A stretch of DNA of 64,000 nucleotides from Amphiscolops sp. MND2022 (GCA_964187785.1 OZ076409.1:53012001-53076000), one strand, 5' to 3'. Positions 1,207 through 38,400 are shown, counted from the first letter of the stretch. Numbers and translations: made by a program. Notes: a model not told the origin generated them from the sequence alone.

Positions 1207-2148
1207 GTTGATAAAAAGGGGTGAAACTCACTTATCCGACTGATTGAATTGGAGAAGGAGGACATTAGCGTGAGAAAAATGTAGTGAATATTAGATTCGA
1301 AAAGTCCTCTCGATATAGCAACAAAACTTTGAGAATAGGTAGAACCAACACTTGAAAACTTTGCAGCGGCATAGAAAAATGATGTAATAGTGGTAACACG
1401 CCGAAGCACAGAATTGCACGAAAACGAAAGAATTCAACGTGATAGAAAAAAAAATCAGAGAAGGTCGGATGCCGAGCAACAGAAAGAAGATAAAAACTCT
1501 TCATGAACCGAACAAAGTGACTGAGATACGAAATACACGAAATGAACAAAAGTTGAAAGAAATCTAACGACAGACAAAATAAAAACGATCAAGAAACCAG
1601 AGCCCCCCGCGAATACGAATATTTGAAATCATCACTTGGAGCCGTGCACGACATGGCAAAAATGTTATCGAAACTCCCATAAACGACAACCTGACCCAGA
1701 AGGTTCTCGTCGAGACGAAGACTTGATTGGATGGACTTGGGAAGGCGAAAAGTGTTTTAAAGAGACAAAAACAAAGGGTAATAAAAACACCATGTCTAGT
1801 ACATCACGCAAGAGACAAAGATAGTATCCCTAGTAAAATGGGACTTAGTATCACACTTTTGCAGAGACAAGAAGACAATATTTAATTAATCGAGAGTGTA
1901 AATCGAACATTACGAGTAAACCGGTTTACAGTTCCCACAGAACCGAAGATGACATCAATTGAATTACATCACGGTAGTAAAACGATTTACCAAACATTGT
2001 GAAAGACAGAAAACGTTAATCATCTGATTGTTCTGAACTGTCTTTTTGAGCACCACACAGGTTGAAATTAGTGATCTATGTCGGCCTGGATGCTGATTGC
2101 AAATTTACCTATCATATTTTGATTTCAAGAACTAAAGCCGACAAAAGG

Positions 2149-3996
2149 TGTCGCAGGCTGCCGCCTGTGACGGCACGACAGTAACTACTTCGGCAGTTGG
2201 TCAAGAATATGTACCCGGAACCTTACCTATTTATTAAGAACTTACAATTGATATCAAACTTTCACGCCATTTTGTTATTTTGTGCATTATGATCATTGAT
2301 GACGTTCACTTTATATACAATTAGTCTGTTAAATCTAACAATTGGAAATTTCAATCGAGTTGATGGAGTTGTAAAGGCGCTAATTTAAAGCGATAGAAAA
2401 TACAATGAAACGAGCGACTGTAAGGCAGTATAGGAAACGAGTTCAAGTGACGTACGGCAATGTACCGGCAGCGTCACTTGAGCACGTTACCTTAACCAAT
2501 CATATCGCAGTATGCAATCTCGTTTGTTGATGCTATTTAATTAATGGCCGAGTAAGGCCAGTTGCCGCGCTTTTAATATTCTCTTTTGGTACACTGGTCA
2601 AATGGCCGGTTCCGTCCCATTAGTTCAAGACTGAAATAAGGTGATAATTTAACATGAAACAAGTCATGTTTGTTGAGTTTGTGTTTTCATAATAGCCAGA
2701 TCTCTGTTCATAACTGATGCTTCGTCTTAATACTCAACCTTTTGTTAGGCCCTTAAGGCCATATTTCATTAGTACTTGCCTATTAATTAGCCGGCTATTT
2801 CCGGCCATTGAAATTGTTACGTTCCTTTGAAAAGTGATGTAGTACATATATTTGGGGCTAATCGGTTAATCAACGCATACAATTATTAATATGACAATTG
2901 GCCGTATTAGGCCTAATAACATGATGTGCTTCACACTGTTGCAAAGCTAATTTTAGGTCACGTGGTGGCACGTGCCTGAAAGGAATGTGTGCAATGTTAT
3001 TTATATTCATGATGAGTACTAGTTCCTTTGATAGACGGAAATTTCATTTGATGCACTAGTAAATATTTTGATGCCGCCTTTGATGAATGAATAGTTGTGA
3101 TTGTAAAATGTTAGGAATTTTCCCAATCGGGACATCACCCTAAAATAGTTGCTTTGAAGTATTAATACCCGATGCCGTAATAATACTTGTCACATGACCC
3201 GTTGAGGACATAACCACATGATATTATCTTCATCAAAGAATCCGTGGAATGTAAGTGTCATCTTTCAGGAGTATATATAGTTACTTTCCTGCAAAGGGAC
3301 ACACAATTTCCATAACCTTGCTTTGATAAAGATCGATTTATTACAACGACGTTTGTCAGTTTTCCGGTTTTAATAATTGAATTATTCAACCCGGTTCAAT
3401 TTCAATGCCTACCACAAGGAAACAAAAGAAAGCGAGAAAATCAAGAGAGGCAGAAATGTTGTCAGATATTGAGAATTTAGACATAATGCTTGGAGGAAAT
3501 CATTACAATAGAAATGAAAGAAGTGATAGTCTAAATAGTAACCAGGCCAGGAGACCTGGTAGTCCTTTTGGCGACGAATTTGAAAATGAGGATGAAAATA
3601 GGTTATCTAACTCTGAAAACAATGGACCTAGTCCAAATGCCGAATTAGGCCAGAACTCAGTTAGAGGTAGTTCTAATGCTGAGATCAACAGATTGTCGAG
3701 TGAGTTGAATTCCCGTATATCTCGGGAGATGGATGAGATGATGAACAGCGTCAGTGTGCAGATTCAAAGAGCTATAAGTGAGGCAATTAGTAATCAAGTT
3801 CTTCCCCAGATTCAAAATGCCCTTATGGCCGATTCCGGACATATGACCAAAGAGAGATGGAACGTTCCGTCTGAGAGACCGGAAGGATATTCTGAAGTTC
3901 TGCGTAATTCAGACTCTAGAAACAATTCGAAGAGTAAGACACTTGGTGACCGTCAGAAGGACGGATTCACATTATCGGACACCCGTGCTTACGACA
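2149..3996 (+). repeat. 5' LTR (1848 bp)
   Basis: Near-identical to 19481-21328 (offset 17332); one mismatch noticed by eye (3231 C vs 20563 G); TG...CA ends. Confidence 0.97.
3271..3280 (+). promoter_or_regulatory. Probable LTR TATA box
   Basis: GTATATATAG about 130 bp upstream of the gag ATG; the same motif occurs at similar positions in related LTRs (~474, ~42928). Confidence 0.6.
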
Positions 3997-5126
3997 TGGT
4001 GACAGGAGCAAACGAATCTCCAATTGAAGTTCCTGAGTTTCTCACAGGACGAATGCCATCCACTAGTCATCTCAACAGATCCTGTGATGACCTTCCGCTG
4101 CTCGACACGACGATCCCAGCACAAGAACGACCCGCTCTGGCATCAGAACAAGACCCCATCAATAGGCTAGCAGATGTTTTAACTAGTATGCAGAACCGCC
4201 CAACGGCCCAACAACTCACTATCCGCCCAGTCAACTCCAACACAATGACATTCGACGGAAAAAGTGAGAAGTTCGAGCTGTTTGAGGATTTATTCCATAC
4301 GATGATCAAGATGCAGCCTGAGATGACCGAACAAATGAAAATCAATCACTTCCATTCCTTACTGCGAAAGAATGCACTCCAAACATTTAGAAACATCAGC
4401 AACGCCAATAGACAAACTCTTGAGGATGTACTTGTTATTTTCAGACGAAAGTACGTCAAACCTGAATCTCAGGCAACTGCAAAACACAAATGGCATCGCC
4501 TAGTCTTTGACCCTAACACGACCAAATTGCCAGACTTCCTTGAAGAGCTTAACCAAGGAGCAGAAAAAGCCTTTGGAGACAATGCCCAAAAAATGATCGA
4601 CAGTCTCCTATACGCAAAACTGCCACCAAAGCTCAAAAGATCAGTCAACATGGCTAGACTAGAGAATGGCTCTTACGATGAAATCGTCGCTCATCTGGAA
4701 AGAGAACTGGAACTGAATGCACTCGAGGAGTCTGATGACCTACCTATAGCGTCAATGACATCTTCGGTTGGCAAGACAAAAACTGTTCCTTCCAATGTAC
4801 AGATGAGTGACATAACGTGCAATTATTGCAAGGAAAAGGGCCATATGGTCAAGGATTGCGAGAAACTGAAGAAGAAAAAAGAAAAAGATGCCCAACAAGG
4901 CAAACAGACTCAGAAAAAGACGTACCCGGAGTGTGGCACTTGTGGTAAAAAGAACCACCCCGAAGAAAGATGTTGGCAAGGCGCTGGTGCACATCTCAAA
5001 CCCAAACGCACCAGACCAGATGACGCCAATGATGGTAAGCCCCATTCAAAGGCGCAGAAACCACAAAACAAATCAACATCACCAAACTCCCAATCCTCAT
5101 CCTCTAATGATGAGTCAAAAAACTAA
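3405..5126 (+). CDS. gag: Gag (573 aa) with two CCHC zinc knuckles; first ~197 codons lie within the LTR
   Basis: Capsid-like region (FDGKSEKFELFEDLF); knuckles CNYCKEKGHMVKDC and CGTCGKKNHPEERC; upstream of pol. Confidence 0.95.
   Translation: MPTTRKQKKARKSREAEMLSDIENLDIMLGGNHYNRNERSDSLNSNQARRPGSPFGDEFENEDENRLSNSENNGPSPNAELGQNSVRGSSNAEINRLSSELNSRISREMDEMMNSVSVQIQRAISEAISNQVLPQIQNALMADSGHMTKERWNVPSERPEGYSEVLRNSDSRNNSKSKTLGDRQKDGFTLSDTRAYDMVTGANESPIEVPEFLTGRMPSTSHLNRSCDDLPLLDTTIPAQERPALASEQDPINRLADVLTSMQNRPTAQQLTIRPVNSNTMTFDGKSEKFELFEDLFHTMIKMQPEMTEQMKINHFHSLLRKNALQTFRNISNANRQTLEDVLVIFRRKYVKPESQATAKHKWHRLVFDPNTTKLPDFLEELNQGAEKAFGDNAQKMIDSLLYAKLPPKLKRSVNMARLENGSYDEIVAHLERELELNALEESDDLPIASMTSSVGKTKTVPSNVQMSDITCNYCKEKGHMVKDCEKLKKKKEKDAQQGKQTQKKTYPECGTCGKKNHPEERCWQGAGAHLKPKRTRPDDANDGKPHSKAQKPQNKSTSPNSQSSSSNDESKN
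3997..4008 (+). promoter_or_regulatory. Primer-binding site TGGTGACAGGAG (tRNA-Leu-like)
   Basis: Directly abuts the LTR CA end; same 12-mer at 43162 (+) and at 58449 and its duplicate (-); one mismatch to the complement of the metazoan tRNA-Leu 3' end (TGGTGTCAGGAG). Confidence 0.85.
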
Positions 5127-8100
5127 CTTCGCCACGACTCCAATATAACCAATTAGTCTCTGTCCGACAATACATCAAATCGGACCCTCCAACTCAAAGC
5201 TTTCATAACTATCAGCAGCAACTGATGGGCTACCCTTCTGTTGTCTGGCAGCAACAGATGGAAAAAGCTACCATTATTACCTATAATAATACCCATTTGT
5301 TCCAAAAACCAATTCCTGTATGGGACCCTGATTACACATCTGCTTTCAATAGCCGATTCAGGCCCATTCCCTTGGTAGATGACTACAATCCTACCTACAT
5401 AGATCCTGACTATGGACGAGATCCCTATTGGGACAACGAGCTTTATAACCAGGATTTGCTGCAATTCCAATACGTTATTGATGATATAGAACTCTATAAC
5501 AGATCAGTCCATGACAATCCACCAATCACCCATAACAAGAAAACCAGAGCATTGATTGAAACATGGCAGATGAATGATGGTACAAGCCATCCGGTATTCC
5601 CAAACCCCTTGGGGACCGAAACCTCAGACAAACAAGAAGAAACAATACCACACTCACTACTTGATGAAAGTCAGTTCCAGAACATCCTCATCACCAGAGA
5701 AGGAGAACCAGACTGTATTCCTCTGTCCACCAACATAAACTTGAAATGCAAAAAACGCATGCTGTATTTCCCTATGGACTTTGGGGAACTGACCATAGAT
5801 GGACTTATTGACACGGGTGCCTTATCCAGTGCAATCCCTGAAATGGACCTCCGGAAAATCAGGCTCCTATCACCGCAATCAGTCATCCGGGAAGGTCCAC
5901 CTCCGAATTTCCAGATAATGGTCGCAAATGGGCAACTAGAGACTCCAAAGAGTACTATAGAGCTCAAATTTGAAGTTGGTGACATAGAATTCCATGAAAT
6001 TTTCATAGTAATGGAACACTTGACAGGACCAATTATAGGACTGATGTTCCTACAGAGAAACCATACAGTTTTGGACATGAGGCAAGGAATACTGAACTTT
6101 CCATTCTTTTCGATGCAGCTCAAAACAGCTGATCACAAATACTCGAATGTACTTGAACCAATTTTGAACCCTACCGAAATAACCATTCCGCCAAACGACA
6201 GAGTCCTAATTAGGACCAATTCCCTATTGTACCCTGAAAACACGGTCACAGGGATCTTACAACCGAGCGACCTTCTTCATGAAGAAGGAGACATCACATT
6301 CTGCCCAGCCCTGGTTACTTTGAACGATGGCAATATACAGATACCGGTGAATAATTTCACAGATCACCCTTACAAGCTCAAAAAGGGACTCCATATTGCC
6401 AGCTTCTCAGTCATGACGCCAGAGCAGATGAAATACGTCAAACCAATAGACCCAGCTTCAACCTGGCATTTGTTACAAAATGACCAAGAACAGGCAGCCC
6501 ATTACGTCAGTAGTCTCATCAAGACTAACAGGAATCCACAAAATACCGAAAACTATTGGTTCCCAACCCCAGAGAACCCAGGGAACCCAGAAGAACATAC
6601 ACCAATCCAAAAAAGGATACTCCGTGAATTACAAGCCCTACAGGACCTAGAATCACTCGATCCCACAAAGGATGAGGAATCTAAGGCAAAATTCCTAGAA
6701 AACTTTGACTGGAAAGACTCCACATTGACACCTGATGAAAAAGAGAAAATTGAACAATTACTAGTGGAGTTCCATGATATCTTTGCAAGACATAGATTCG
6801 ACATAGGCATGAATGAGGAATTCAAAGTGAAGTTGACACCCAAGGACGATTCCCCAGCCTACAGCCAAAGCCTCCCTGCGCCGATTAACCTGAAGGAAGA
6901 CATTTTAGTCGAATTAGCCATGCTTCACAAATATGGCATCATAACTACCCTACCGTTCTCGAAATACGCCAGTCCAATATTTGCACAAAAGAAACCGAAT
7001 GGGAAACTGAGACTTCTGGTTGACTTGAGAAAAATCAACAACCTAATCTCTGATGATTATATTAACAATAATCATCCAGTCAGTACCCTAGTCGATGCCG
7101 CCCAACACATGGCAGGCAAGAAACTCTTTTGCAAGTTAGACTGTTCACAGGCGTATCATTGCCTTCCCATGGCCGACCAACGTTCAATCGAAATGCTGGC
7201 CTTTAACTTTGCAAGCCGCACATTCGCCTACAGACGACTGGCACAAGGCCTTAGTAGGGCACTGTCCGCATTCTCCAGCTTTATGAGAGAGTACCTAGAC
7301 AAAGTCATAAAAGCGGACCAATGTGCACAGTATGTAGACGACATTGGCATCGCAGCCAATGACGCCGATCACCTTATTGCTAACCTGAGAGCAACTTTCA
7401 AATGCATCCAGGAGGCAGGCCTTAAATTGACAATGCACAAGTGCCATTTTGGTGCCACAGAAATCGATTTCCTTGGCAGGACAATAACCGCACAAGGCGT
7501 CAAGCCCCAACGGCAGAATGTTCAGAATTTCCTAGAAAAGACCAAATTTCCGAAGTCGAAAAAGGCTCTACAAAGATATTTGGGTTTCTTGAACTACTAC
7601 CGGAATTATGTCCCAAGACTGTCTGAACGCCTTGCTCCGTTCTACAGGATGCTCAAGAGTGACGAAAAAGTCCTAGTGTCCAAGGAACTAGTTCAACAAT
7701 TTGAGGAAATCAATCGAGCTCTGGACAAATGCTGCGACTTGGCCCTACAACAACCCATCCCGAACAAACAAATTGCCCTAATGACAGATGCAAGTTTTGG
7801 TGCTGCAGGATATGCAGTACTCATCGAAGATGACCCGAGTCAGAAATTCACGTCAATCCGCAAATCATATGCACCGGTCGCTTATGGTTCAAAAACCTTC
7901 ACCCCAGCCCAGATAAAGATGTCGATTTATGCAAAAGAATTTCTGGCGATCTACTTCGCATTTAAAGAATTTGGATATATCTTCTGGGGAGCGCCGAAAC
8001 CGGTCATAATCCTAACTGACAACAAAGCCGTAACAAGATTTTTCCAAACGAATATCGTACCCCCAGCCCTGTGGAATGCGTGTGACTATGTAATTCAGTT

Positions 8101-10331
8101 CAATTTTGTCATCGCGCACATCCCAGGAGCACAAAATACGGCAGCAGATTATTTATCTCGATTGGAAGCCGAACCGAAGGACAAATTAGTCATGAAAATC
8201 CGCGAAGACGTACAAACTCTGCCAATAGAAATAAACGTCCAATCAGCCGGAGTCTCACAGGAAGAGCAAATCTTCTACACAAACGACGATGATGAGACTG
8301 AAGAACAATATTGGGCGAGAAAAGAAGCAATCAGGAAAAATCCTGTAAATGAAGAACCTACTGTTACAATACAAACTCTCTATACCAACTTAGTCAAACA
8401 ACAACCTGAAATACAAGTCCGACTGAGGAAAACCAACCTGATAATTATTGAGCAATCCAAAGATACAGTATTGCAACAACTGAAGGCGAAGCTCCTTCAT
8501 GAAGAGTACTCAGAAAACATACTGCAACAGGATGCTCGATACAGACATTATGCTAATAATCTGGAAAGAATTGTCATCAAGGAAGACATCCTAACAAGGC
8601 AATATTTTGACGAAACCGGGAATATAAAATATCATCAAATTCTTCTCCCGCAACACTTGCTGCCAGAATTGCTTCAGTCCCTACACGGGACAGCCCACAA
8701 GCACCCAGGCATCTCAAAGATGCTGCAGGAGATCAGACAGAGATATTATTACCCTAACATGGCGAAACATGTCAAAAAGTGGGTAGAAGGGTGTGAACAA
8801 TGTGCGAAGGACAAACGAGTCCCAAACGCAACAATCACGCCTGAACTACTCAATTTGCCCGAATGGGACCTTGGACCTGAAGACGCCATGCAAATCGACT
8901 TATTGCCGAATCTTCCCCCAAGTGGAGGATACGAAAATGTTTTAACTGCAATTGATGTCTTCTCTCGATACTTGTTTGCTTATCCTCTTACAGACGCATC
9001 AGCGATCAATGTAGCTAAAGCAATCATTGATATTATGACGAAACATTCTTACCTACCGACGACGCTCATTACGGATAAAGGAACTGCCTTTACTTCCACG
9101 ATCATTGCGGAAATTACACAGATTTTAGGCATTACCCTAAAATGTGCAACGACGAAACACCCGCAAACCATCGGGAAATTAGAGCGAACGCATGCCTCAC
9201 TAAAAACGAACCTGAAAATGGCATGTGGGGAATATCGCCAACAATGGCATAAATATTTTGCCTTTAGCAGTTCTCAACCATAACACAAGTTATCATGCCA
9301 GTATCGGATGCGAACCCACAAGAGTGTTCCATGGGAGAATCCCATACAACATCTTGGACCACAAACTTGGAATGAATCCAAATGAGCAAATCCATCCGAC
9401 TACTGAATTCGCAGAAGAAATCCAGAACCGGACCAAACTCCTTATTGACAAAACTAAACAGAACATCATGCAGTCATATATCAAATATAAGGAGTATTAC
9501 GACCGAAAAGCAAAAGCCGCCCCACTCAAAGAGGGCGATTACTGTTTTGTATTACAGCCGAAAGCGGATCATCAAGGATCAAAAATTCCATTCAGGGATT
9601 ATCGTTGGGTTGGACCATTCATAGTCCAAAAGACCTTACCTAATGAGAATTACATTGTCCGAAGGCTTAATACAAATAAAACGCAGATATTGCATCGAAT
9701 TCGTCTCAAAAAGTTTGTGCCAAATCAACCACTTGAGGACAATTTCCGAGAACAGCGTCTACAGCCGGATGACGAAATAATCATTCCGCAAGACGACTTG
9801 TATGTAATAACGTGGGAAACAAACTTTGGCGAACAACTAGACACACGAGGCAGCGAGCCTATTCCGACCAGCTTGACGAATGACGAACAGCAGACTACGG
9901 CAGAACCGAATGCAAGTGACGCAAGCGAGAATGAAGTTGATTATGTAATCACGAGTGACGAATCAAATTTCACTGACCGCGCGTCGCATAGCCGGAATGA
10001 ACGATTAATTGATGACGTCACTAAAAGAAATAAAGCTACTGAAGCTATTAGAAACGACGAATTTGATTGGCCAAATCCGGCCGTTTCCCCAAAAACCCAA
10101 GAAAAATCTGTGCCGAAAACGGCTGAAGGACTAAAAGACGATGCAAATTTTCCAGAAAGAAATTTGATGAATGAAAAAGATGCAGAAAATTCTCCAAATA
10201 GGGGGGATGATATTATCGTGCCCGAAATATCACAAAATGAAGAAGGAAATGAAAATCTGAGTCCTAGAGCTGGGAAATATAATCTCAGGCCTAATCCTAC
10301 CCCTAACTACTCAGAAGACTTTAGATACTAA
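5114..10331 (+). CDS. pol: Pol polyprotein (protease, dUTPase-like insert, RT, RNase H, integrase with GPY/F-type motif); one frameshift near 9256-9259
   Basis: LIDTGA protease, YVDD RT, TDAS RNase H, HHCC and D-D-E integrase in ORF 5225-9283 (frame open from 5114); integrase tail (WVGPF) continues in ORF 9225-10331. Confidence 0.95.
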
Positions 10332-10604
10332 AGGAAAGATTAAATTGTGCCCGAAAACGGACGCCGAACTATCTTTTCTCTTCCTTTTATCATTATTTCT
10401 TTTCTTTTCAGTCCCAGAAACTGGTATTTTTTGAATAAATATCGGGACGTTTGACAATGATCCCTTCAAGGGAATAATATGGGATCAAGAAATTGGCAAC
10501 AAATGGAATACAAATAAATGCAACAACAAGAAATAAAAATATAACAGAAACGGAAAGAAATCAACAAAGTTTACAACTGGTTGTACATAATTACATATGT
10601 ACAT

Positions 10605-13600
10605 TTAGTTTTTAGAAGAACTGGGGACACACTCATCCACGACAGAAGAGGCCCTAGATCGGGAAGCGCTCCGACTCATCCTCCTGCGCTTGCTAGCGCT
10701 GGGGGCTTTCAGAGCACATTCATCGGCGACACTATCGTCGCCCCTGGTTCCTGCCTCAGTGGAAACTGCCTTAGGCACAGAGAGAATGGACTTGTAGGTG
10801 GACAGCAGCGATTTGTAAATTTTGGAGCGGCCAAAATCGTCAACGTACGTCCAAGGGTCGTAATCGGCTGAGAAGGCAGATCGTCCAAAGGAGGAAGCGA
10901 ATAAAGAAAACTTGGACAGATTAGCTTCATTACAACAGAAAGCGGCTGACCCAGGAACTGAGCTTATATAACTCTGGACAGGCAGAATAACATCGGTAAA
11001 TCTGCCTCGGTGACCCGCCGTACTCACACTCCCGGCAGTTACTACTGGATAAGTAGGGGTAACAGAGGTTGCACACAGACAGCAAAGCTTAAACAAATAA
11101 AGAAGCCGCTCCCGTGACTGAAGGAAGTCCAAGGTCATCATGAAATCAATCAAGTCTCGAGAGACACTGGTGACGTCAAAGGTAGGGGGGTAATTCCCTC
11201 GAAGATGATCGAGAAGAGCCAAATAATCATCCCGACAAGCTGACTCATCGGCCTCGAGGACCCAAGAGCGGAGGAGGAAAGTGCTGTATAACAACTCAAA
11301 GTGCTTAAGAGCAATGTCGATTGGCCTCTTGAGCATGACAGTTGGATCAAAAGCAGCCAGACCTTTGATGATGTTGGAGCTAAGACCGGGTTCATGGAGG
11401 ACCTCTCCCAATAAGTACTTCAGGTAGTTTTGCCCGTCTTGGACAAACTTCGACTTGATTGCCTCCGCTGTCTTCTGGATTACGGAACGCTCAGTCTTTT
11501 GACCAGAATGGACCCCTTCTGACCTCTGCTTACTGGCTGTTGCGACCTTGTTGGTGATCTTGAGACGAGCCAGAAACTCCGCCTCGGGGATGAAAACTCC
11601 GTCTGAAGTACGGAAATTGAGGAGCTGGAACCATGCATTTTCCAATGGGACCGTATCAGCGGTGTAGATCCGGAAACAGAGTTGATGTATATAACGAGAG
11701 ACCTCACCACACAGGAAGAAGGACCCATCTCGTCGCTGTTGCAGGTTGACCGCAAAACTGGAAGTATCTACAACAAAGGCGGACCTTATATATGAGTTAA
11801 GGACACGTCCTAGAGGAGGTTAAGCAGTGATACTAACAGTCACTGACGAGCTTGCAAAAGAATTCCAACTTGATGGTGAAGAACTCATCACAGATGAGGG
11901 TCCACTCAAAGCTCTGTGCCTGTAATGGGAAAATATCAGTTAGCCTGAATTATGAGGACATTTTGAAAGGTACCGAAATTTAACGTTGGGACCTAAGGGG
12001 AAGGAAAACCAATCTCTTAGTGGACTTACTCTCGTTCGAACCCCCTGTCCTTGTTGTCGGGGTGAGTGCTCCGTTAGGTAGCGCACAACTGATTTCCAGG
12101 CGATGATGAGTTCCTGACATAGGACAGGAAGAGTGGGGAGATCCAATTTGCATGAAGCTATAGCCTAAATAACGTATTGTATTAGTGTCCGTAAGGGAAA
12201 TAAGCAGGGTCTCTTATCTGTCCAAGGTACAACATTCCTACCATAATCGGAAAGTCATTACCTGAGATAAGGTGGGGCTCTGCAGTACCCAATCCTCAGA
12301 GAGAGATCCACCCAGGGTGATGACTAAGGCATGTAGGACCGAAAAGAAGTCGATATGCCCGAAGACACTATAACTGGGTTTGTGCATCAGTCTGGAGAGG
12401 GACAAGGTCTCAAACCGGAAGGACGCCTGCACTGCTCTTGAGAAGAGTGGGGAATGGTCGATTGTCCTGACAAAGTCAACGGGGCAGCCAGAACAAGCCA
12501 CCACATCGCAATTGGTGGAGACTGCGGATAGGAGCCGTGAGAGAGACCCTAGTTCTCCTGACAATTCCGAAGAGGGTAGCTCGCTGCGACAGACGAGGAC
12601 GCGACACAATTCAGTCCCCTTCCAGAACCGTAGAGACATGAAGCGATTGACATTGCTGTCTTCAAATTCTATGGCAAAGCACTGTTCTGCAGCCACGCAC
12701 TCCGCTATTTCGCTCATAGCACAATTGAACAGGTGCTGGAAGATTGTCTGGAAAACAGACGAATGTTTCAAAAATGCAGAATGGATTGAGTCAACCTACA
12801 AGTAGGGAAAATAAAAACTTACCGTCATACGTTCTTCCCCCCAGTCGAAGTCACAGAGAGTAGCTTGGTAGTCTGTGAAGGAACTAAGGCGTGCCCATAG
12901 ATTGCGTAGCATCGCAAAATCGCCTTGGTCCTTGAGGAAGTCAATGACGATGCCCAATTGGGTCCTGGACCTGGACTCTGGGGTGACTATGGCAGTGGTC
13001 CGTCCCTGGATAAAATCGTCATAAAAGGGGAATCGTTCCCCGATGTCCACTAGCTCTGAATGGATGAAACGTGGGAGTTCTCTGGCTAACTCCCGGACTG
13101 ACTAAACTGTCTTTTGGTGAATTGTCAGTCAATCTGTAGCATTGAAAAGAGGCAAAATTTGAACAAGTTATGTACTGTCAACACTGTTTCTTTAGTCTTC
13201 TTAACGGAAACATGGCTTTCAAATGACGTAGTGAATTCTGAGGTTTTTCTGGGCAATTCTTTCACTGTTATCTCTCGCTCTGACCGTTCTTTTGGCTCTC
13301 ATGGTGGTGTTTTGATTGGTGCCTCAAATGATGTCAACCTGAATATTATGGATGTTTCTATTGTCGACTACGAATTCTCTGTAGCCTGTGTTGTTGTTGA
13401 CGTGAAACTCATATGCTTCGTTCTTATTTATTTCCCACCTTCTACATCTGAATACCGCATAGACTGCAAGGTTTTGACATCATGTCTACATTCTTATAAT
13501 ACGAAATTTGCCACAATGAGTTATCAATGTGGTTTTGGTGAAGATTATATCTTATTCATTCTTGGCGATTTCAATTTTCCTGAAATCGATTGGATTAATC

Positions 13601-16600
13601 TAACATCATCAAATACTAATGAGCAAAAGTTTATTGAAACCTCTGACCTGTTAGCAGTTTCGCAGTTAATCGATACCCCGACTCATAAGTTGGGAAATAT
13701 TCTTGACCTGATTCTAACAAATGACGACACTAGCTTTTTCAATGTTCACCAACAGTTGTTTTCTGATCATTTTCCAATATTATTCTATACGTCTTGCTGC
13801 CTGCCTAAACCAGTTTGTACTGAATCGTTCTCCAAATCTTCTTTTGACCAATTCCTTTTCAACAGTAATCTTGAAACCTTATTCAATTTCATAACACTTG
13901 ATAACTTGTCTAATCCCTGTTATCCTTACGAATGGTATGAACTTTTAACCCAATCTATTGGAAGCTCTCTGCAGCTCAAGCGTTCCAAAAGACTTCATTT
14001 TCCAGCTTTCTACTCATCACATACAATCCATATTCTCAATCTTGTTAGAACTAACCAAACAAAATTGAACAAAGGTTGGTCGCTCCACAATTCAATCAAG
14101 CATATTGAGTTGACACGTGCCCTCTCTGAATCTATTGAACTTGACAAACACATTTACATTGAGCAATTCAGCTTAAAGTCGCCAACAGACTGTTTCAAAC
14201 TTCTGCGTTCACTAGGTTTTAGTCAATCATATCCTTCTGTTATGTACTTTGAAGATCAAGTTTTACATACTGAAAGTGAGAAAGCAACCTGTTTTAATAA
14301 CTACTTCGGATCAGTATTTGGTCCCAAAACCATCAACCCACCTACTCTTTTCATGTCTTCAGATCACAAAATTTGTCTTGATGATGTTTCTATTCGGGCG
14401 GAAACTGTTACTTTCATGCTTAGTCAATGCAATGATTCGTCATCCCTTGGTCCAGATCTTATTCCCTCCTTCATTTTATATCGATGTTCTCAGATCCTCA
14501 CTCCCATAGTTACTGAACTCTTCAACTGGGTTTTACACAATAGAACTTGGCCTGCTATGTGGAAGTTGTCTTTTGTTACTCCTCTTCACAAAGATGGTCC
14601 ACGAACGCAGATAGAAAACTATCGACCAATAAGTATTTTGCCTAAATTGTCTCTTATTTTGGAACGTATACTTTTCAATTTTATTTATCCAAAAGTCCGA
14701 AATTCGATTACTAAAAACCAGCACGGCTTCATGACAAAACGAAGTACTGTAACGCAGATGATATTATATCTTGATAAAGTCTACCGTAATATTGATTCCA
14801 ACGTACCGTCATTAGCTGCATATTTCGACGTCAGAAAAGCTTTCGACTCAGTGCCTCATCACTTACTTCTGCAAAAACTTGTGAAATTCGGGTTCTGTCC
14901 AGATTTTATTCGCTTGTTCTCTTCTTACCTGGATGAACGCTCCCAGTGTGTAAAACTTAATAATACCTTCTCCAGTAAAATAACCGTTTCTTCTGGTGTA
15001 CCGCAAGGCAGTGTACTGGGTCCATTACTGTTTATCCTGTTTGTAAACGATATGCCGAACTTAATAGTTTATGGTACTCCTTTCTTGTTTGCTGATGATA
15101 TGAAGGTGTTGTTCGATGTTGATCCCCGCCAAATTCAAAGTGATATTGACAACTTGTATCTTTGGAGTATTGCCAACGGTCTGATTTTTCACCCTTCAAA
15201 GTGCAAAATTTTACCTTTTGGTTCCTCGTCTTTCGATGAGTCATTCATTCTTGGCGACAATGATCTTCCGGTGGTTGACAATTAAAAAAATTTGGGCTTC
15301 CTGATTACTCACAATCTAAGCTGGAACAGCCACATTGACCATAAATTAGCCACTGCTCGAAAAATATTTGGGTTTCTTCGAAGAAATGTTCCATTCAATT
15401 GTTCTTTTGTCAGAAAGAAACTGCTTTATCAAAGTCTTATTTTATCTGTTCTTCTTTACGGTTCCCCTGTGTGGTCTCCCTCCTCCACGTATATTGCAAG
15501 ACTAGAAAAATTCCAATATAAAGTTTTGAAATGGATGTTTTCATCAGAGGACTATGTTTCAGGTCTGCTCCAGCTACAGTTTCTTCCAATCTGCTACCAA
15601 CTCATCAAAGCTGACGTGATTCTACTGTGGAAAATTTACAATAGTGATGTTGATTGTGAATACTGTCCATCTAATGTTGCCTCTTGTACGCGTGCATCTT
15701 CGGCCAATCAATTTATTATCCCTGATACAAAAAAACTTGGCTCAAACGCTAACTTCTTCGTACGAGCCACACGTTCTGTAAACTTTCTCTTAAGTCAAAA
15801 TGTTATATCTTTAACCATGTCTCTATCATCTTTAAAATTATCTCTTGACTGTTATTTCAGTATGCTAACAAAGAATTTTAACATCGATAATTCTTGTTGC
15901 TTCTACCTCAAATGTATGTGCACTTGTTGTAGGTCCTAATTCACCTGATTTATGTTTTGTTCGCTATAATTATTTCTTTCTTTGTTAAATAATTTCCGTA
16001 ATTGGAATTGAGTCTTTTACTACTACTACTACTACTACTAACTCAATCTTGTTCAGAAGCCTTCCGTTTCGTCCTCTTACACGATGCTGGACTTGCTTGG
16101 TGACGGGATCAACACTCTTTAGATGCTCATATCGCCACCTCTGGTCTTTTCTTAGATGCCTCTCTGAACGGTGGTGCCTTAGGATTTCCATGGTGCCTTT
16201 GCTGCGGATGGAAAAGTTTCTTTTGCAAATGTGACACCAAACCATCAGAGGATTGTGGATGGGGTCCGCGGGTCCAGAAATGAAGGACCTTGTCCAACCA
16301 ATTTTTGCAAAGAATTCTTCACGCATGGGGACTCCTCTGTGGGTGGTGCGCTTGATGCGTTTCTGCCTCTGCGTCTTGGTAGTTGTTCTGGATTTGCGTT
16401 CCAGAACCTCATCGCGGACTTCCAGCAACGTGGCATCTTGGCTGCTGAAGCCTGATTGGCCAGGCTCTTCTTGTTGGGACTGACTTCCGGACTGCTGCGT
16501 GGGATTTGGTCCTAGATCCGTAGTGAGATTCTTCTTGAATGTCTCAGTGATCAGAGCCATCTCTCCGGAACTATCACTGTCTTCGAACCCAGCGGATGTA

Positions 16601-17733
16601 TCAGTGCCTTCCGCTCCAGACGAGGAACCAGCTAAGGGACAGGCCCCAGTGAGGTTATCAGTTTCATCGTCACTTGATTCACTGCATCCAAAGGGAGTGG
16701 GGACTCGAACTCTAGTCTGGAAGTGACTGGTCCTTGACGGGGCCACGGTCGGGGTGCCCTTTACTGCGTCCAACACCATTCGCTCCATCGTGGTATAAGA
16801 CATTCGGATAGTCTCGTCAGTAAGGGACCTTAAGAGGTGGTACATCTGTGGCTCAGTAAAAGCCACAGTTGGATGTCCGAGGGGTAGAGAGAATGGCTGT
16901 GCATCGTCAAAGTAGGTTTTGAGGATGGCGCGAGTCCTACCTGATAATTCAGGAAGCCTGTCATCTTGCTGTCTCCGGGGCACGCCGTCTTGGTTACTGA
17001 GCACCGAATGTGAGGGATTGATGCCAGTCTCACTCTCTGCTTCAGCTCCCGACTCAATCTCCAGTGGGTTGGTTCCGTACAAAGGAGGGCATCCTGCTAA
17101 GCTGCTTTCATCTGCAGTTTGCTCACTCCCACTGAAATCCGTAAGATAGAGGACTTTGGGCTTCACAACGGGTAGAGCAGGGACTTCGTACACTGAGGAT
17201 TCATTATCATCTCCAGATTGCCCCCTGGTTAAAGTTTCATCATTGGGAGGTGACGCTACAACGGCCACAAGTTCTGGGAGCTGGGAATTGGACGAGGTGG
17301 CTACTCTGAGTGCAGACTCCAATGCAGACAAGTTACACTGGGTCAACACTTCCTCATCAGGGAGCGTTGGGGTACTTGTCCTGACTAGTTCCTGAACTAA
17401 TGTTTCAGTCCTCTCCTGAGTTCGGTCATCCGCACCAGTAGAAGCGACAGTGGCAGTATCATCTGGGGAGCGAGCAATTGCCGTCTGAGCTTTCTCCATC
17501 ATGTCTACCATCTCATCGGCGAAAGTAGTCACATCTACCTCGCTATCCGTGCTCCCTTTGGTCTCTTGGGATTGCGTCAGAACAGAGGTATGAGGAGCTG
17601 ACACTACAGTTTCAACAGGGTTGTCTAGACTTGGGTTGGCTGGGACTTGGGTCTCATCACTTGTCTGGTTTTCTAAACAGAAGGAGATGAAATTTGGCGG
17701 TATGCTTCCTTGATAGAAATCCATTTGCCGCAT
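10605..17733 (-). CDS. Antisense five-exon accessory gene (~1274 aa): low-complexity N-terminus, BED-like zinc finger, degenerate hAT-transposase-like body; interrupted by a LINE in this copy
   Basis: Exons 17733-16045 + 13092-12823 (joined after LINE removal), 12747-12262, 12164-12030, 11919-11838, 11767-10605; four GT-AG introns of 75, 97, 110 and 70 bp; the joined 3825 nt form one open frame; motif WCHICKRNFSIRSKGTMEILRHHRSERH. Confidence 0.85.
13093..16044 (+). mobile_element. 5'-truncated non-LTR retrotransposon (CR1/L2-group-like LINE) nested in the LTR element
   Basis: 7-bp TSD CTAACTC (13086-13092, 16038-16044); (TAC)n 3' tail; APE endonuclease plus RT ORF. Confidence 0.93.
13102..15939 (+). 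pseudogene. LINE ORF2 (APE endonuclease + reverse transcriptase) with one in-frame stop at 15283-15285
   Basis: LTETWL, GDFNFP, SDH endonuclease motifs; NYRPISIL, GVPQGSVLGP, FADD RT motifs; ORFs 13114-15285 and 15292-15939 share a frame; terminal CMCTCC. Confidence 0.92.
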
Positions 17734-18786
17734 TAGAAAACTTCCGGAAGTGTTCGAAATTCTGAACGGACGTGATCAACACGTGTTCACCAAGTAGTGG
17801 AAACAGGAAGCAATTAGTGAACAAACTTAGCTCTGATCAAGTTAAACTAGTTCAAAAATATGAAAACCCAGACCAACCTGCTTTTGAAGACATTCTGTTG
17901 TGGAAGAATTCGTTCTAAGGGATTCTATCCAAATTCGGATGAAGAGTATGGGGAAGACGGCCTAACACGGCTGATGAAAGAGGGGCTCGGAGGGCTCCGT
18001 AAAGGGAAGAAGAAGCCAGCAACGAAGTTGAAGACCCAGATAAGGAAAGCGGAATAGCAAAGACTGAAGGATACAAATGTAAACAATTTAAATGGTAATG
18101 GAACTAAATGCGTGTTAACAATTGAAAGGAGATAAAAGTTGGAGGTCGTGGCTGAAGAAATTACCAGACTAATATTATTTAATTATCTACATATTTATTC
18201 GGTACATGGAGTCTGCCAGCGAAATGTACAAAGAACTTTGCTATTTACAGCTTAACTAGTTAGAGGCCGGTTATGGCCAGTTGACCTATCTTGTTTTGTC
18301 GTTTTGTCTAGTTACCCTAATTACCTTAGCTGAATCTTCGCCATTTTAGTTATTCAAATTATTATTTTTCGCCATCTTTATTATTCATTTTTCAAATTTA
18401 TCGAAGCTCAAATTTGATTGGCTGAAGCCATTTTAGTAGGCTTTACCTGACGCGTGCCGTTAATTGCTATCAAGCTTGATGTTAATTACCCTCTTGAAGT
18501 GGAGTTATTTGTTGTTGTTAACTTAACACCTCTCTGATTACCTACTTGAGAGGGTGGGCTCGGGGGGCAGCGTTCCGATATTCAAAGGGCGAACCGCCGC
18601 TGAGAAACCCCATTCAGAAAAGTTTACGACGGATCAGACCGATTAACCAAAGAATCTGCCGCTGAAACGAAACCCCGGGAAAACGGCCCGAGTCGGCCCG
18701 AGGAGAGTTTTATAAATTCATTCAACTTTGAATCTCACTTGCAGCTAGTTGCCTTCATAAACTTCAAAATAGCTAAAAAATTCATC

Positions 18787-19569
18787 ATGGATAAATACGC
18801 AAAATCTGGAAAACTCTTCGAGATGGCTGAACTGGACTCAGACTCATCAGGCGATTCAGTTATTTACATAAGCAGCGATGAGGAAACCTCAGTTGATTTG
18901 GACTCAGACTGGTCGACGGACACGGACGAAATGATCAGAAGGGTGGAGAGGCAGGTAGTGTCCAGCCCCATTCTAATTGCCGGACGTGTCATGACGACTA
19001 GCAGTATGGAGGAAGAAATGGTCACAGGACCAAGCACCAGACAGCCGGGGCAAGATGTGACTCCCAAGTTAGATACAAAATACTTTGATCACGAGAGGTG
19101 CTATGCCCCGTCAAAGAGAGCGGAGAAATCACGAATTGAGCTCTGCAAGACGCTGCTACCAGTGCTAGAATCACCGATGTCTCCACCAATCCATGAGAGG
19201 GGGCCAAGCCAGGACACTCCTCTGGTCCAGCCCGCAGTAAGTGATTTTCATGTGTCTTATCACGTGCAGAACTCGGTGCCCTACCAAAATGTCAGCGAGA
19301 CCCAATATACTGGGTGTATGGTTTGCGGCCGCTCTGTAGATGCAATCAAGAGTGAGAGAGTCAGATGGTATATGGAACGATCCACCCCAAGGAACGAGGC
19401 CGAGCACATCACGAAGTTGAGGAAAGAAGCCTACGAGAATGGGCTTAATGCGGGATGCTTCCTTTTCATAACACCCGCAGTGTCGCAGGCTGCCGCCTGT
19501 GACGGCACGACAGTAACTACTTCGGCAGTTGGTCAAGAATATGTACCCGGAACCTTACCTATTTATTAA
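18787..19569 (+). CDS. Accessory ORF3 of the LTR element (260 aa from first ATG), function unknown; last 89 nt inside the 3' LTR
   Basis: Long uninterrupted ORF with an acidic Ser/Asp-rich N-terminus and a CMVC motif; no signal peptide or transmembrane segment evident. Confidence 0.7.
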   Translation: MDKYAKSGKLFEMAELDSDSSGDSVIYISSDEETSVDLDSDWSTDTDEMIRRVERQVVSSPILIAGRVMTTSSMEEEMVTGPSTRQPGQDVTPKLDTKYFDHERCYAPSKRAEKSRIELCKTLLPVLESPMSPPIHERGPSQDTPLVQPAVSDFHVSYHVQNSVPYQNVSETQYTGCMVCGRSVDAIKSERVRWYMERSTPRNEAEHITKLRKEAYENGLNAGCFLFITPAVSQAAACDGTTVTTSAVGQEYVPGTLPIY

Positions 19570-21328
19570 GAACTTACAATTGATATCAAACTTTCACGCC
19601 ATTTTGTTATTTTGTGCATTATGATCATTGATGACGTTCACTTTATATACAATTAGTCTGTTAAATCTAACAATTGGAAATTTCAATCGAGTTGATGGAG
19701 TTGTAAAGGCGCTAATTTAAAGCGATAGAAAATACAATGAAACGAGCGACTGTAAGGCAGTATAGGAAACGAGTTCAAGTGACGTACGGCAATGTACCGG
19801 CAGCGTCACTTGAGCACGTTACCTTAACCAATCATATCGCAGTATGCAATCTCGTTTGTTGATGCTATTTAATTAATGGCCGAGTAAGGCCAGTTGCCGC
19901 GCTTTTAATATTCTCTTTTGGTACACTGGTCAAATGGCCGGTTCCGTCCCATTAGTTCAAGACTGAAATAAGGTGATAATTTAACATGAAACAAGTCATG
20001 TTTGTTGAGTTTGTGTTTTCATAATAGCCAGATCTCTGTTCATAACTGATGCTTCGTCTTAATACTCAACCTTTTGTTAGGCCCTTAAGGCCATATTTCA
20101 TTAGTACTTGCCTATTAATTAGCCGGCTATTTCCGGCCATTGAAATTGTTACGTTCCTTTGAAAAGTGATGTAGTACATATATTTGGGGCTAATCGGTTA
20201 ATCAACGCATACAATTATTAATATGACAATTGGCCGTATTAGGCCTAATAACATGATGTGCTTCACACTGTTGCAAAGCTAATTTTAGGTCACGTGGTGG
20301 CACGTGCCTGAAAGGAATGTGTGCAATGTTATTTATATTCATGATGAGTACTAGTTCCTTTGATAGACGGAAATTTCATTTGATGCACTAGTAAATATTT
20401 TGATGCCGCCTTTGATGAATGAATAGTTGTGATTGTAAAATGTTAGGAATTTTCCCAATCGGGACATCACCCTAAAATAGTTGCTTTGAAGTATTAATAC
20501 CCGATGCCGTAATAATACTTGTCACATGACCCGTTGAGGACATAACCACATGATATTATCTTGATCAAAGAATCCGTGGAATGTAAGTGTCATCTTTCAG
20601 GAGTATATATAGTTACTTTCCTGCAAAGGGACACACAATTTCCATAACCTTGCTTTGATAAAGATCGATTTATTACAACGACGTTTGTCAGTTTTCCGGT
20701 TTTAATAATTGAATTATTCAACCCGGTTCAATTTCAATGCCTACCACAAGGAAACAAAAGAAAGCGAGAAAATCAAGAGAGGCAGAAATGTTGTCAGATA
20801 TTGAGAATTTAGACATAATGCTTGGAGGAAATCATTACAATAGAAATGAAAGAAGTGATAGTCTAAATAGTAACCAGGCCAGGAGACCTGGTAGTCCTTT
20901 TGGCGACGAATTTGAAAATGAGGATGAAAATAGGTTATCTAACTCTGAAAACAATGGACCTAGTCCAAATGCCGAATTAGGCCAGAACTCAGTTAGAGGT
21001 AGTTCTAATGCTGAGATCAACAGATTGTCGAGTGAGTTGAATTCCCGTATATCTCGGGAGATGGATGAGATGATGAACAGCGTCAGTGTGCAGATTCAAA
21101 GAGCTATAAGTGAGGCAATTAGTAATCAAGTTCTTCCCCAGATTCAAAATGCCCTTATGGCCGATTCCGGACATATGACCAAAGAGAGATGGAACGTTCC
21201 GTCTGAGAGACCGGAAGGATATTCTGAAGTTCTGCGTAATTCAGACTCTAGAAACAATTCGAAGAGTAAGACACTTGGTGACCGTCAGAAGGACGGATTC
21301 ACATTATCGGACACCCGTGCTTACGACA
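19481..21328 (+). repeat. 3' LTR (1848 bp), with a second copy of the gag 5' segment (ORF 20737-21402 runs into the flank)
   Basis: Direct repeat of 2149-3996, followed by TSD AAAGG. Confidence 0.97.
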
Positions 21329-22033
21329 AAAGGCAACTTTCGACAGCACAAAAGTCACCGAAAGTAAAAACATCCGGCGAGCTATTAATTGTTCTTTGTT
21401 GAAACAGATACAAGAAAAAATTCACGCAACGTTCATCTCGGGCCGACTGTTCCTGAATGAAAAGAAAACCCAAAAAGATACGGAGCCAGCGGTGGGTGTT
21501 GACATGAAACCGAAGAACCGACATTACCTTCGCGTGCTAGAGGGGGAGTAAGTCCGACGGTATGAAAGCCTTAAAATTATACCCTAAATGGAAAATTGAA
21601 AATCGTCCGAAACAAACGAATGCAAAATTCCGAGGCTGAAGAAAAAGATGATGAATAGAATGAAGAAGAGAATCTAGAAGGAGCCGGATAACACCATCTA
21701 TGGTGAACAATTGTTCTTTTCAACATTTTTTCGTAAAATTTCTATTTTCGAACTAATATGACAAGAACTCCGAGCATGTATACATGCATTCTATGCGCAG
21801 TCCGATTCTCTTCTCAAACGTTTTCTTCAGTATACAATATAGATGTACTAGTTTCATAATTTTTATGAATTGCAGAGGCTTCTTTTCAGAGTAGCATAAA
21901 ATCTACACTAATAGAGTAACTGAAAACTGAGAAAGACTCTCCAAAGCGTGAATATTTTTCCACAGTAACCCAAGGGTTCCTCTCTACCCAAAGAAATTAT
22001 TTCAATACTCGCGCTTTTAGTTTTTAAACTAAC

Positions 22034-35400: not shown

Positions 35401-38400
35401 CGACGGCAATTTCAAGCCACGAAGTTCTGCAAGTTTCAATAAGCATAAGTTCTAATTTTAAATGCAGCTGAGACGTCAACAATTTTGCCGCCATTTCAGT
35501 GCAATTTAACTTCATTCACAATGTAAACAGCAAACTAGCGTCATCTTCAGCGTGCTATTTGAGAAGCGGTGATTAAATCAGATGAGTATTTGAGAAATCA
35601 ATGTGTGAATACACCGTGATCGTGTCCGTAAAAAAAGTGGGAAATATTTTCAAATTTAATTGCAGTAGTAGAAAATGCAGTGTAATTCTACAGGATTTAC
35701 CTCCGGAACTTTACTGAATTTTATAGGTTTTATAAAAATTACCCTGCATGCAGGTCTGCAGCATGTAAAAGGTTCCAGCAGTCTCACCTAGGGGAGTGAC
35801 TGTAACAGTCGGGCTCTTATTTTCTAAAAGCGCCGACTAAAAACATGTCACTGCAAGATTTGAGCGCTTTTTTTAGTAAAAGATCTGTTCAAAAATACTA
35901 AAGGGGAACCTTCTCGGAAACGAAATTCATTTCGAAAAAGTCGCCATTTGCCAAAAAACATCAGTCTCTTTTGTAATTTAGCAATCCAAAAACTATCTGA
36001 AACATCCAAAAGTAGTCCAAACTTTTTAAAAAAAAAACGTTCCAAAGTTGATCAAAAGTTGCAGCATTTAAGAATTGGAAATGAAGGCATTTTTTTTTTG
36101 CTTTTTCGTGGCAATTTTCTTAAATAAGCTTGGGATTTTTTCTCTAGAAGGTATCCTTTAAAAGCAAAAAAGATTTTTAAAGAGCTCTGTAGATGTTAAT
36201 TCTTACAAAAACATTCAAATCGATATATTTAAAGCGTTCAAAACCTTATAGCGTTTTGAAACCAAAACATCAGATGCTTCTACTAAATAGATTGTGGGAT
36301 ATCTTATTGTTGCGTCGTAGAGCTCTGTGGATGTTCTAATCTTAAGAAACAGTAAAAAAGGGAGAAAAACCATAAAAGTTTCAAAAAAATTGTCAACTTT
36401 CGAAAATTTTAGGGTTATTTTGGTGTAATTTCGAGGCCCTTTGGAAAATTTGTTTTCCAAAACAGTTCAAAAATATCGACAGATCATTGTTATTTAAACG
36501 TAATTGGATGACGGCTGAGTTCTGTGGAACAATCACTATAATTTGGGTATGAAATTGGAAAAACATGCATACCCCAGTCGAGACTGCTTGAACTTTTTAC
36601 ATGCTGCAGGCCTGCATGCAGGGAAATTTTTGATAAAACCTAGGAAATTCTGACTGCGCGCATTGAAAATTCTTGTACAACTTCCCTGCATCTTAGAAAA
36701 TCTTCGATGTTTTCACTGCACCTTGAAACAAGCCGGGAACGGCCCAGGTCGGCGCAATATCTAAGGCTCAAAAATAGCAAAAACACTTCAAAGTGTCAAG
36801 TACTCTCTTCTACAGTACCCGAATGAGGAAAAAATTTTCTAATTTTTTTCGAAATTATTTTGGAGTCTCCGGTAAGTCACATAGTGCCGAAAAATGTAAA
36901 AGGCCCTTTGGGAGTTTTTGAACATCCATTCTTTTACAAAATAGAAAATTGAAGGGGGACCCTTTGGAGACATTAAAATATTTTGCGAAAAAAGTCTCAC
37001 AGAGCCGAAATAACCTGCACAAAAAACTTTTGGTCAAGGGCGGGACTCGAACCCACGTCCTTCGACTTGTCAGACCTCAAAAAAGCCTAATTAAACTCTA
37101 TGCCAAGTGCCAGTAGAAGTAGTGTGGCAGTTAGTGTTAGTGCAAGTCAGCTTATAAAGCTTATAAAATCTGTCAGTTCGTTGGTCTTAAAAAAGTCACC
37201 ACTATAGTCTGCGTTTTTCTACGAAAAGCGCCGACTAAAAAAGTCCTGCAACTTTTAAAAAAAGTGAAATAACTTAGAAGCGGGATAGAATTCAAATTTT
37301 GACTCAGACACTGCAAAACAATATCATATTATCTGAATCCTATTATTTCCTGCAAAACTGCTTCTCAAACGCTAGAGTTCTCATATGAAAAAAGAAAAAA
37401 AAGTTATATTATGAAACGTAAACATTAAAACATCACGAAACAATTGTAATTATCCTTCAAAAAACTGGTATTATTGAAAGCTTTCGGATTCTGAGAACTT
37501 TGCTGGCGTCATAAACCAAGGTCACACAAGCGTCGGAGCAGATCTGTAGCAGTCACCAGTGAAACTTCTCCATCAGAGGGTTGGATTCAAGATGAAAGCT
37601 TCTGAAACAAAAGGACTTCTGAGTTCAAAGACTGTAAAGAGGCTGAGCGGAAGGACAAAATAGTAAAAGCAGCTCCAAAATCACTTCAAAAACCAACACG
37701 TGTTTTCCAAAACTCGTAAAAATCTTTCCGCAACCATCAGAAACTTCAAACGTGAGGAGCAAGACAAAGCAAAATCATTCAACGAGAATAACAACATTGC
37801 TCAAAATTTCGAAAACGAATTTTTCACTATGCTAGCGAGGTCTCTTATCGAAACACTGAATCTCACAATTTTGACTTCAAAAATTACCAAACAGAAACAG
37901 TGATAAAATAAGGAAAAAGACTGTAAAAAGACTAAAATCGATAAAGATATCTCTAAACACAGGTTTAATGGCTAAAATAATTGCGTACAGTACATTTAGG
38001 GCCTATTTTACTAAATTAAAGTGATTTTAGGCCTTATTTTAACACTATAGTGATTTTATCAGAATAAGGACTAAACTTAGAGAAAAAATTTCCAAACACT
38101 GGAATAACGACTAAAATCGATGAAGATATTTCTAAACACGGAAATAACGACTAAAATCAATGCGTACAGTACATTTAAGGCCTATTTCACCAAATCAAAG
38201 TGAGTTTAGGCCTTATTGTACCACTATAGTGATTTTATCAGAATAAGGACTAAATTGAAAGAAGGTCCAAACACTGGAATAACGGCTAAAATCCATGAAG
38301 ATACGTCTAAACACTGGAATAACAAATGGAATCAATGCGTGCAGTACATCTAAGGCCTAGTTCACCAAATATAAAAGACTTTAGTCCTCATTCTAACACT

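Follow-up and report, generated by a model that had tools for sequence, protein, structure and literature searches.

The window, that is, the whole stretch of 64,000 nucleotides of Amphiscolops sp. MND2022 DNA that was analysed (GCA_964187785.1 OZ076409.1:53012001-53076000), harbors a Ty3/Gypsy LTR retrotransposon in which gag and pol are followed by an antisense gene and by an additional sense ORF, the two arranged head to head. Its features, numbered from the first nucleotide of the window, are the following:

2144-2148, plus strand: left target site duplication (TSD), AAAGG, the same as 21329-21333
2149-21328, plus strand: whole retrotransposon, defined by sequence comparison as an LTR pair with TSD
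2149-3996, plus strand: 5' LTR, 1,848 bp, TG...CA, with a TATA-like box at 3272
3405-5126, plus strand: gag, 573 aa, with a zinc knuckle (zf-CCHC, Pfam)
3997-4009, plus strand: primer-binding site (PBS), directly adjoining the 5' LTR and starting with TGG
5114-10331, plus strand: pol (PR-RT-RH-IN), with a frameshift near 9.25 kb in the window copy
10332-10604, no strand: gap of 273 nt between converging stop codons
10605-11767, minus strand: predicted antisense exon 5, 386 codons after a phase-1 junction
11768-11837, minus strand: predicted antisense intron 4, 70 nt
11838-11919, minus strand: predicted antisense exon 4, 82 nt
11920-12029, minus strand: predicted antisense intron 3, 110 nt
12030-12164, minus strand: predicted antisense exon 3, 135 nt
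12165-12261, minus strand: predicted antisense intron 2, 97 nt
12262-12747, minus strand: predicted antisense exon 2, 486 nt
12748-12822, minus strand: predicted antisense intron 1, 75 nt
12823-17724, minus strand: predicted antisense exon 1, 650 codons without the LINE
13093-16044, plus strand: nested LINE, 2,952 bp, endonuclease-RT, with one in-frame stop and an ACT-repeat tail
17725-18786, no strand: head-to-head spacer of 1.06 kb between the antisense gene and the sense ORF
18787-19569, plus strand: sense accessory ORF, 260 aa, ending 89 nt inside the 3' LTR
19481-21328, plus strand: 3' LTR, 1,848 bp, without a canonical polypurine tract in front
21329-21333, plus strand: right TSD, AAAGG, 5 bp

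Pairwise comparison of the two LTRs of the window copy reveals one mismatch which, together with the TG...CA ends and AAAGG on both flanks, bears out the paired, near-identical LTRs and the clean TSD of the initial annotation. That annotation also took the accessory frames to be open, but this copy is defective: pol carries a frameshift near 9.25 kb, and the LINE interrupts the antisense gene within exon 1. The LINE is private to the window copy and no part of the element family, since its site is empty in 28 of 29 other near-identical copies (the remaining one was not matched by the probe, and none carries the LINE); without it the element measures 16,228 bp, as had been estimated (about 16.2 kb). 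Intact frames occur in other copies, with a pol frame most commonly of 1,738 aa (150 RT matches in the genome) and an antisense exon-1 frame of 675-677 aa.

The presence of gag was correctly predicted, whereas its placement had to be corrected: it starts 592 nt inside the 5' LTR, so that its first 197 codons belong to the LTR. The final 29 codons of the sense ORF are likewise contained in the LTR, at its 5' end. The gag/pol overlap is located at an A-AAA-AAC heptamer, which we assign to the class of slippery motifs and which is probably a -1 frameshift site. The Pfam domains of pol (protease, RT, RNase H and integrase) follow the Gypsy order, and Ty3 is the best PDB sequence match for RT-RH, with the foamy virus and caulimovirus enzymes narrowly behind, in agreement with the proposed Gypsy gag-pol. 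No Pfam match to env was found in the window or in the sense ORF, and hydropathy averaged over 19 residues peaks at 1.34 in the sense ORF and at 1.63 in antisense exon 2, giving no sign of an env anchor. The 273-nt gap behind pol contains three AATAAA hexamers on the plus strand and none on the minus strand. No purine run precedes the 3' LTR in the subfamily of the window copy (L053 has a run of 7 nt), despite which the copies are young and complete.

The sense ORF comprises an acidic N-terminus with a stretch that we regard as SIM-like, and a conserved C-terminal domain containing CxxC; it showed no family match and no clear transmembrane helix. The spacer that separates it from the antisense gene carries motifs, presumably of the YY1, CCAAT, ETS and E-box types, in most of the four subfamilies (3 of the 12 YY1-like matches of the window fall within it), and these motifs suggest that it is probably a bidirectional promoter.

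The cassette is copied with gag-pol under purifying selection

The antisense gene and the sense ORF are copied between the LTRs together with gag-pol by standard LTR retrotransposition, are protein-coding and are under purifying selection. The initial annotation had supposed that the cargo moves with the element, and other copies do keep it at fixed spacing between paired LTRs. Among 32 near-identical matches to the last antisense exon, the sense ORF was found at the expected distance and strand in at least 30, RT in at least 27, and both in at least 25. Four elements at a greater distance were also read to either side, and three of them have the whole layout between paired LTRs. L034/L035 has LTRs 99.8% identical, a 5-bp TSD and a complete layout; so does L053/L054 (LTRs of 1,489 bp, 99.7% identical, 5-bp TSD), although its identity to the window copy is 70% in pol, 27% in the last antisense exon and 32% in the sense ORF. 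L036/L037 shows the layout as far as the contig end, and L032/L033 kept the cargo and lost gag-pol.

The element family is high-copy and recently active. The exact PBS 13-mer has 2,890 matches in the 1.07-Gb genome (3 for the control), and a degenerate motif placed behind the zinc finger of the antisense protein has 2,338 (none for the control). Among the sites listed for contig C1, 29 of 76 motif sites have a correctly oriented exact PBS at a distance of 8.2-10.9 kb, whereas two controls of 76 sites each gave none; in the reverse comparison, the motif is present at only 29 of the 100 PBS sites listed, so that relatives devoid of cargo may exist, part of the shortfall being explained by the use of PBS variants in other subfamilies. 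The last-exon profile yields 616 clusters at 50% identity, of which the 10 looked up are all ENA records, and no relatives of it were found in JGI metagenomes or IMG/VR.

Selection was estimated as dN/dS by the Nei-Gojobori method, with ranges taken from unsaturated pairs (three window-versus-distant pairs, saturated in dS, were excluded). The values were 0.044-0.19 for exon 5 (9 pairs), 0.021-0.097 for exon 2 (8 pairs), 0.12 for the whole of exon 1 (1 pair), 0.075 and 0.085 for the sense ORF, 0.07-0.10 for gag and 0.03-0.18 for pol; pairs with only 2+2 changes gave 0.30-0.31. This check on the cargo, to which the initial annotation had pointed, thus indicates purifying selection on both the antisense gene and the sense ORF. 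Exon-5 variants shared among 25 near-identical copies comprise 28 synonymous and 8 non-synonymous changes, in contrast to 20 and 25 respectively among the singletons of the same copies, so the antisense gene, like gag and pol, is under selection while the element transposes and decays once inserted.

Antisense alleles are exchanged between backbones. Sixty copies share at least 97% identity with the window copy in the sense ORF; of these, 28 have its antisense allele, while three diverged alleles account for 20, 5 and 4 (3 were unassigned). L034 is a clean swap, with a backbone 98-99% like the window copy and an antisense gene like that of L036 (dS 0.2-0.29). The exon-5 tree, a quick search with 51 of 70 rows, is informative for deep subfamily structure only.

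Structure and probable origin of the antisense gene

The antisense gene comprises five coding exons and four introns, encoding by arithmetic a protein of 1,271 aa over about 4.17 kb without the LINE; the spliced gene of about 4.2 kb proposed earlier therefore stands, with its detail corrected to this number of exons and introns. Splicing is inferred from the pattern of conservation: in the subfamily alignment (from which locus L041 was left out) conserved exons are separated by unalignable introns, and in 34 loci spanning the family GT or AG occurs at 244 of 263 projected splice sites and exon lengths are almost constant. Rows with stop codons were removed from alignments A2, A3 and A7. A first intron of 27 nt was considered and rejected, as the conserved acceptor sits 75 nt downstream. 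One search of protein databases returned matches to exon-1 products only, from ENA records, and the absence of a full-length spliced product among the longer proteins of these databases is weak evidence.

Exon 1 encodes a conserved start peptide, followed by a long acidic and Ser/Thr/Pro-rich region and, near 16160-16240, a C2H2/BED-like zinc finger with invariant CxxC...H...H, which lacks a zf-BED Pfam match and reaches an Atlas score of 0.85-0.86 to BED-type clusters. Exon 2, as read by eye, would correspond to the first half of an RNase-H-like core, whereas exon 5 encodes a helical domain and a basic NLS-like tail. The C-terminal 270 residues, comprising the helical domain, align with Hermes residues 368-609, and a language-model search and a structure search agree on the hAT superfamily in the expected region and order. 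This similarity lies below HMM detection, and the hAT profiles used for comparison were shallow and mostly of Ac/BED type. Foldseek gave no match at E<=0.001 against PDB and BFVD, PDB sequence searches with cargo profiles gave no credible match, and an early fold prediction from a 16-row alignment had a pLDDT of 38.5.

At the catalytic positions, placed by eye, the protein has Glu/Ala/Gln and then Ser/Thr/Leu for the projected second Asp, with no His at the positions so placed; the CxxH and Glu-Arg motifs were not found. Exon 2 has one near-invariant Glu nearby, and eight columns of exon 5 are rich in acidic residues. No terminal inverted repeats are shared around the gene in four loci, and the TSDs are of 5 bp and flank the LTRs rather than being of 8 bp around the antisense gene. 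The antisense gene probably descends from that of a hAT transposase, which would have inserted backwards behind pol in an ancestor of the element and then have been stripped of its terminal repeats and its catalytic residues.

It is also conceivable, though unlikely, that the antisense protein is functional and of other origin, either an orphan or a captured host zinc-finger gene, in which case the likeness to Hermes would be due to chance; the convergence of both searches on one superfamily argues against this, as does the finding of no non-element host paralogue among the elements whose context was read. Neither allele swapping nor the probable hAT origin had appeared in the earlier reading, which was made from sequence only.

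Proposed mechanism and competing explanations

The mechanism proposed would begin with the insertion of a hAT gene backwards behind pol in an ancestral element, followed by loss of its ends and of catalysis. Introns that genomic RNA reads backwards cannot be spliced from it and so pass on to new copies, which accounts for the antisense orientation and for the persistence of the introns. The gene itself may have been retained for the DNA binding native to a transposase and for its capacity to stimulate transcription, as described for AtMu1 and Spm TnpA in the accessible text of bioRxiv 10.64898/2026.08.24.746577. The internal bidirectional promoter would drive the antisense gene, whose product would enter the nucleus, where its zinc finger and transposase body would bind element DNA and its acidic N-terminus would activate the element or shield it from silencing, an effect exerted in trans on copies of its own kind; the product of the sense ORF would be a co-factor against host silencing, and template switching would exchange the antisense gene between subfamilies.

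Given a hAT origin, we lean toward this role of a nuclear, DNA-binding activator or anti-silencer, with the sense ORF as co-factor. The full model, a Ty3/Gypsy lineage with a two-gene accessory cassette encoding a hAT-derived regulator or anti-silencer, falls a little short of an even chance. More tentative still is its most specific form, in which an LTR lineage domesticated the gene of a hAT transposase together with its introns and uses the product, devoid of catalysis, as a sequence-specific self-regulator, with a second anti-silencing gene head to head, alleles exchanged between subfamilies and thousands of copies.

A hAT-derived and catalytically dead protein might instead act post-transcriptionally, as a tether that helps the pre-integration complex to choose its target or to enter the nucleus, or as one half, the sense ORF being the other, of a Rev-like switch for read-through past the poly(A) signals behind pol. 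At least two plus-strand AATAAA hexamers follow the pol stop in all five elements checked and none occurs in the LTR, a 16-kb RNA with internal signals would presumably need regulated processing, and transposases bind both DNA ends and target DNA; however, the gap is A-rich, so the hexamers may have arisen by chance, and allele swapping that is independent of integrase and LTR ends suits a host-facing role better than a partner of integrase. This explanation is rather unlikely. It is improbable that competition between subfamilies maintains the accessory genes as a module for addiction or self/non-self recognition, whether by excluding superinfection, by controlling copy number or as toxin and antidote: the head-to-head pair, the four or more antisense alleles on one backbone and the 616 clusters would be in keeping with it, but antisense alleles vary against an unchanging sense ORF, unlike a cognate pair, the low dN/dS of every pair compared gives no hint of diversifying selection, and no toxin-like fold was found.

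Still less probable is a still-active transposase (a dual class I/II element) or a plain nested hAT transposon. Intact hAT transposons are present in the same genome and the conserved acids of exons 2 and 5 would fit; against it stand the lack of terminal inverted repeats at the four loci, the 5-bp TSDs at the LTR flanks whereas Hermes makes 8 bp, and the substituted second Asp and missing motifs (with placement by eye). Finally, a one-off capture or an assembly chimera, suggested by a window copy both defective and nested, is refuted by the cargo kept in other copies, with thousands of motif matches, fixed spacing, the same layout at 27% identity and purifying selection, and is hardly credible.

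Relation to known systems and significance

The proposed self-regulator resembles hAT elements (Hermes) and their domesticated derivatives ZBED, FAM200 and GTF2IRD2 in a BED-like zinc finger followed by a core that partly aligns with Hermes, and resembles the domesticated genes also in apparent catalytic loss; it differs from them by the absence of terminal inverted repeats and of an 8-bp TSD, by an acidic extension of 500 aa and by being kept by a retrotransposon and not by a host. In complex retroviruses, nef and bel genes overlap the 3' LTR. The element likewise combines an antisense gene (as HBZ of HTLV-1, cited in PMC11963269) with an accessory ORF running into the 3' LTR; unlike complex retroviruses, it shows no env, its RT-RH is nearest to Ty3 and its antisense promoter is apparently internal and not in the LTR. 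There is no sequence relationship, and the likeness is an analogy only.

Plant Retand, Grande and RIRE2 elements (TRP28, Gene23) share a long region between pol and the 3' LTR with conserved antisense ORFs (PMC11963269, PMC7264820). Since such ORFs were already known there, the designation of an undescribed lineage is only partly right. According to the accessible parts of these papers, this region spans 2.9-6.6 kb in Retand, the Grande antisense ORF has its own promoter and a nuclear product, and a regulatory role has been proposed; the word intron is absent from the main text on Retand (PMC11963269, PMC7264820). Unlike Retand/Grande, the present antisense gene lacks TRP28 (profile searches found no match to PF04195 in its ORF), has four introns, a zinc finger and a probable hAT fold, and is accompanied by a second divergent gene overlapping the LTR in a non-plant-like context.

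Planarian Burro/GYPSM1 and Ogre are likewise Gypsy elements of excessive size that are present in many copies and have room for additional coding sequence (PMC6431247). The Burro extras are described as domains of a polyprotein of about 4,900 aa, including env-like, BIR and BCL2 domains, unlike the separate genes on both strands found here, where env was not detected; the words "antisense" and "hAT" are absent from the text available (PMC6431247). In bdelloid rotifers, Gypsy-like LTR elements carry captured non-env ORFs recognized by remote homology (GDSL/DEDDy ORF3), but as a single ORF3 of enzyme origin, and the accessible text contains neither "transposase" nor "intron" (PMC5408684). For an acoel genome, LTR elements are given as half of the genome, and the text seen does not give element architecture (PMC9911081). 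TnpA (Spm) and VANC (VANDAL) are likewise accessory and element-encoded, TnpA being transposase-derived; as far as these sources describe, they serve plant DNA transposons and stem from the element's own transposase or from a host MAIN-like gene (bioRxiv 10.64898/2026.08.24.746577; PMC13547354), whereas the present element, of class I, would be served by a gene of class II origin. In the openly accessible literature searched, no report was found of an LTR element whose antisense gene derives from a hAT transposon or contains several introns.

These findings suggest that a jumping gene of one kind tamed another kind as its own regulator. PMC7264820 treats the origin and function of antisense ORFs in LTR elements as unsettled, capture from a nested transposon having been proposed there but left without similarity support; if the present reading is true, the family would supply the missing case of an antisense ORF captured in this way, its intron positions being conserved in over 600 protein clusters, and the route from transposase to regulator would extend from hosts and DNA transposons to retroelements. 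The family also shows that a gene with several introns can persist without limit in an LTR element as long as it lies antisense. Additionally, the natural allele swaps on near-identical backbones offer ready comparisons for the effects of the antisense protein on expression, silencing and copy number.

Repeats surrounding the main element

Upstream of the Ty3/Gypsy element (2149-21328) lies a relative of the 3' part (554 bp) of its LTR, at 74% identity, and further repeats are distributed through the second half of the window.

Repeats of the window outside the main element
577-1206: LTR relative
35734-36631: MITE-like inverted-repeat pair, 60-bp arms 778 bp apart
37916-38937: tandem array, 5.8 copies of a 175-bp unit
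41706-45319: direct-repeat pair, both members identical, separated by 3,257 bp; tandem units of 54 bp lie internally
53255-64000: repeat in four copies, partly tandem, 80-97% identity, spacings of 1.2, 2.9 and 4.3 kb

The LTR relative contains a decayed gag start and ends in CA, with no PBS behind this end, which marks it as either a solo LTR or the 3' LTR of an element from an older subfamily. The direct-repeat pair is a candidate small LTR element or else a local duplication, and the four-copy repeat probably represents LINE fragments.

Sense ORF and 3' LTR junction

No polypurine tract was found at 19466-19480, just before the 3' LTR of the main element, and this junction consists of coding sequence of the sense ORF (plus strand, 18787-19569). 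LTR bases 1-15 are identical between the window element and even the most distant subfamily read. The sense ORF also carries, at 18850-18890, a SIM-like stretch, hydrophobic and then acidic; it is retained in three subfamilies, and a stretch of the reversed type occurs in the fourth.

Antisense gene, other copies and hAT frames in the genome

In the related copy at L071, another locus of the same genome, exon 2 of the antisense gene runs in frame straight into exon 3 (L071:188-808), with intron 2 precisely missing. Past reverse transcription of a spliced antisense mRNA, followed by recombination, would be expected to leave such a pattern. Upstream of the antisense start, a splice-donor-like site near 17877 on the minus strand is conserved in four subfamilies and might belong to an additional 5' exon. 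The L032/L033 copy, also elsewhere in this genome, retains both accessory genes with nearly all of gag-pol gone, and is possibly a non-autonomous derivative. At other loci of the genome (L055-L059) there are transposase frames of the ordinary hAT kind, 597-697 aa long; therefore, hAT donors exist in the host lineage.
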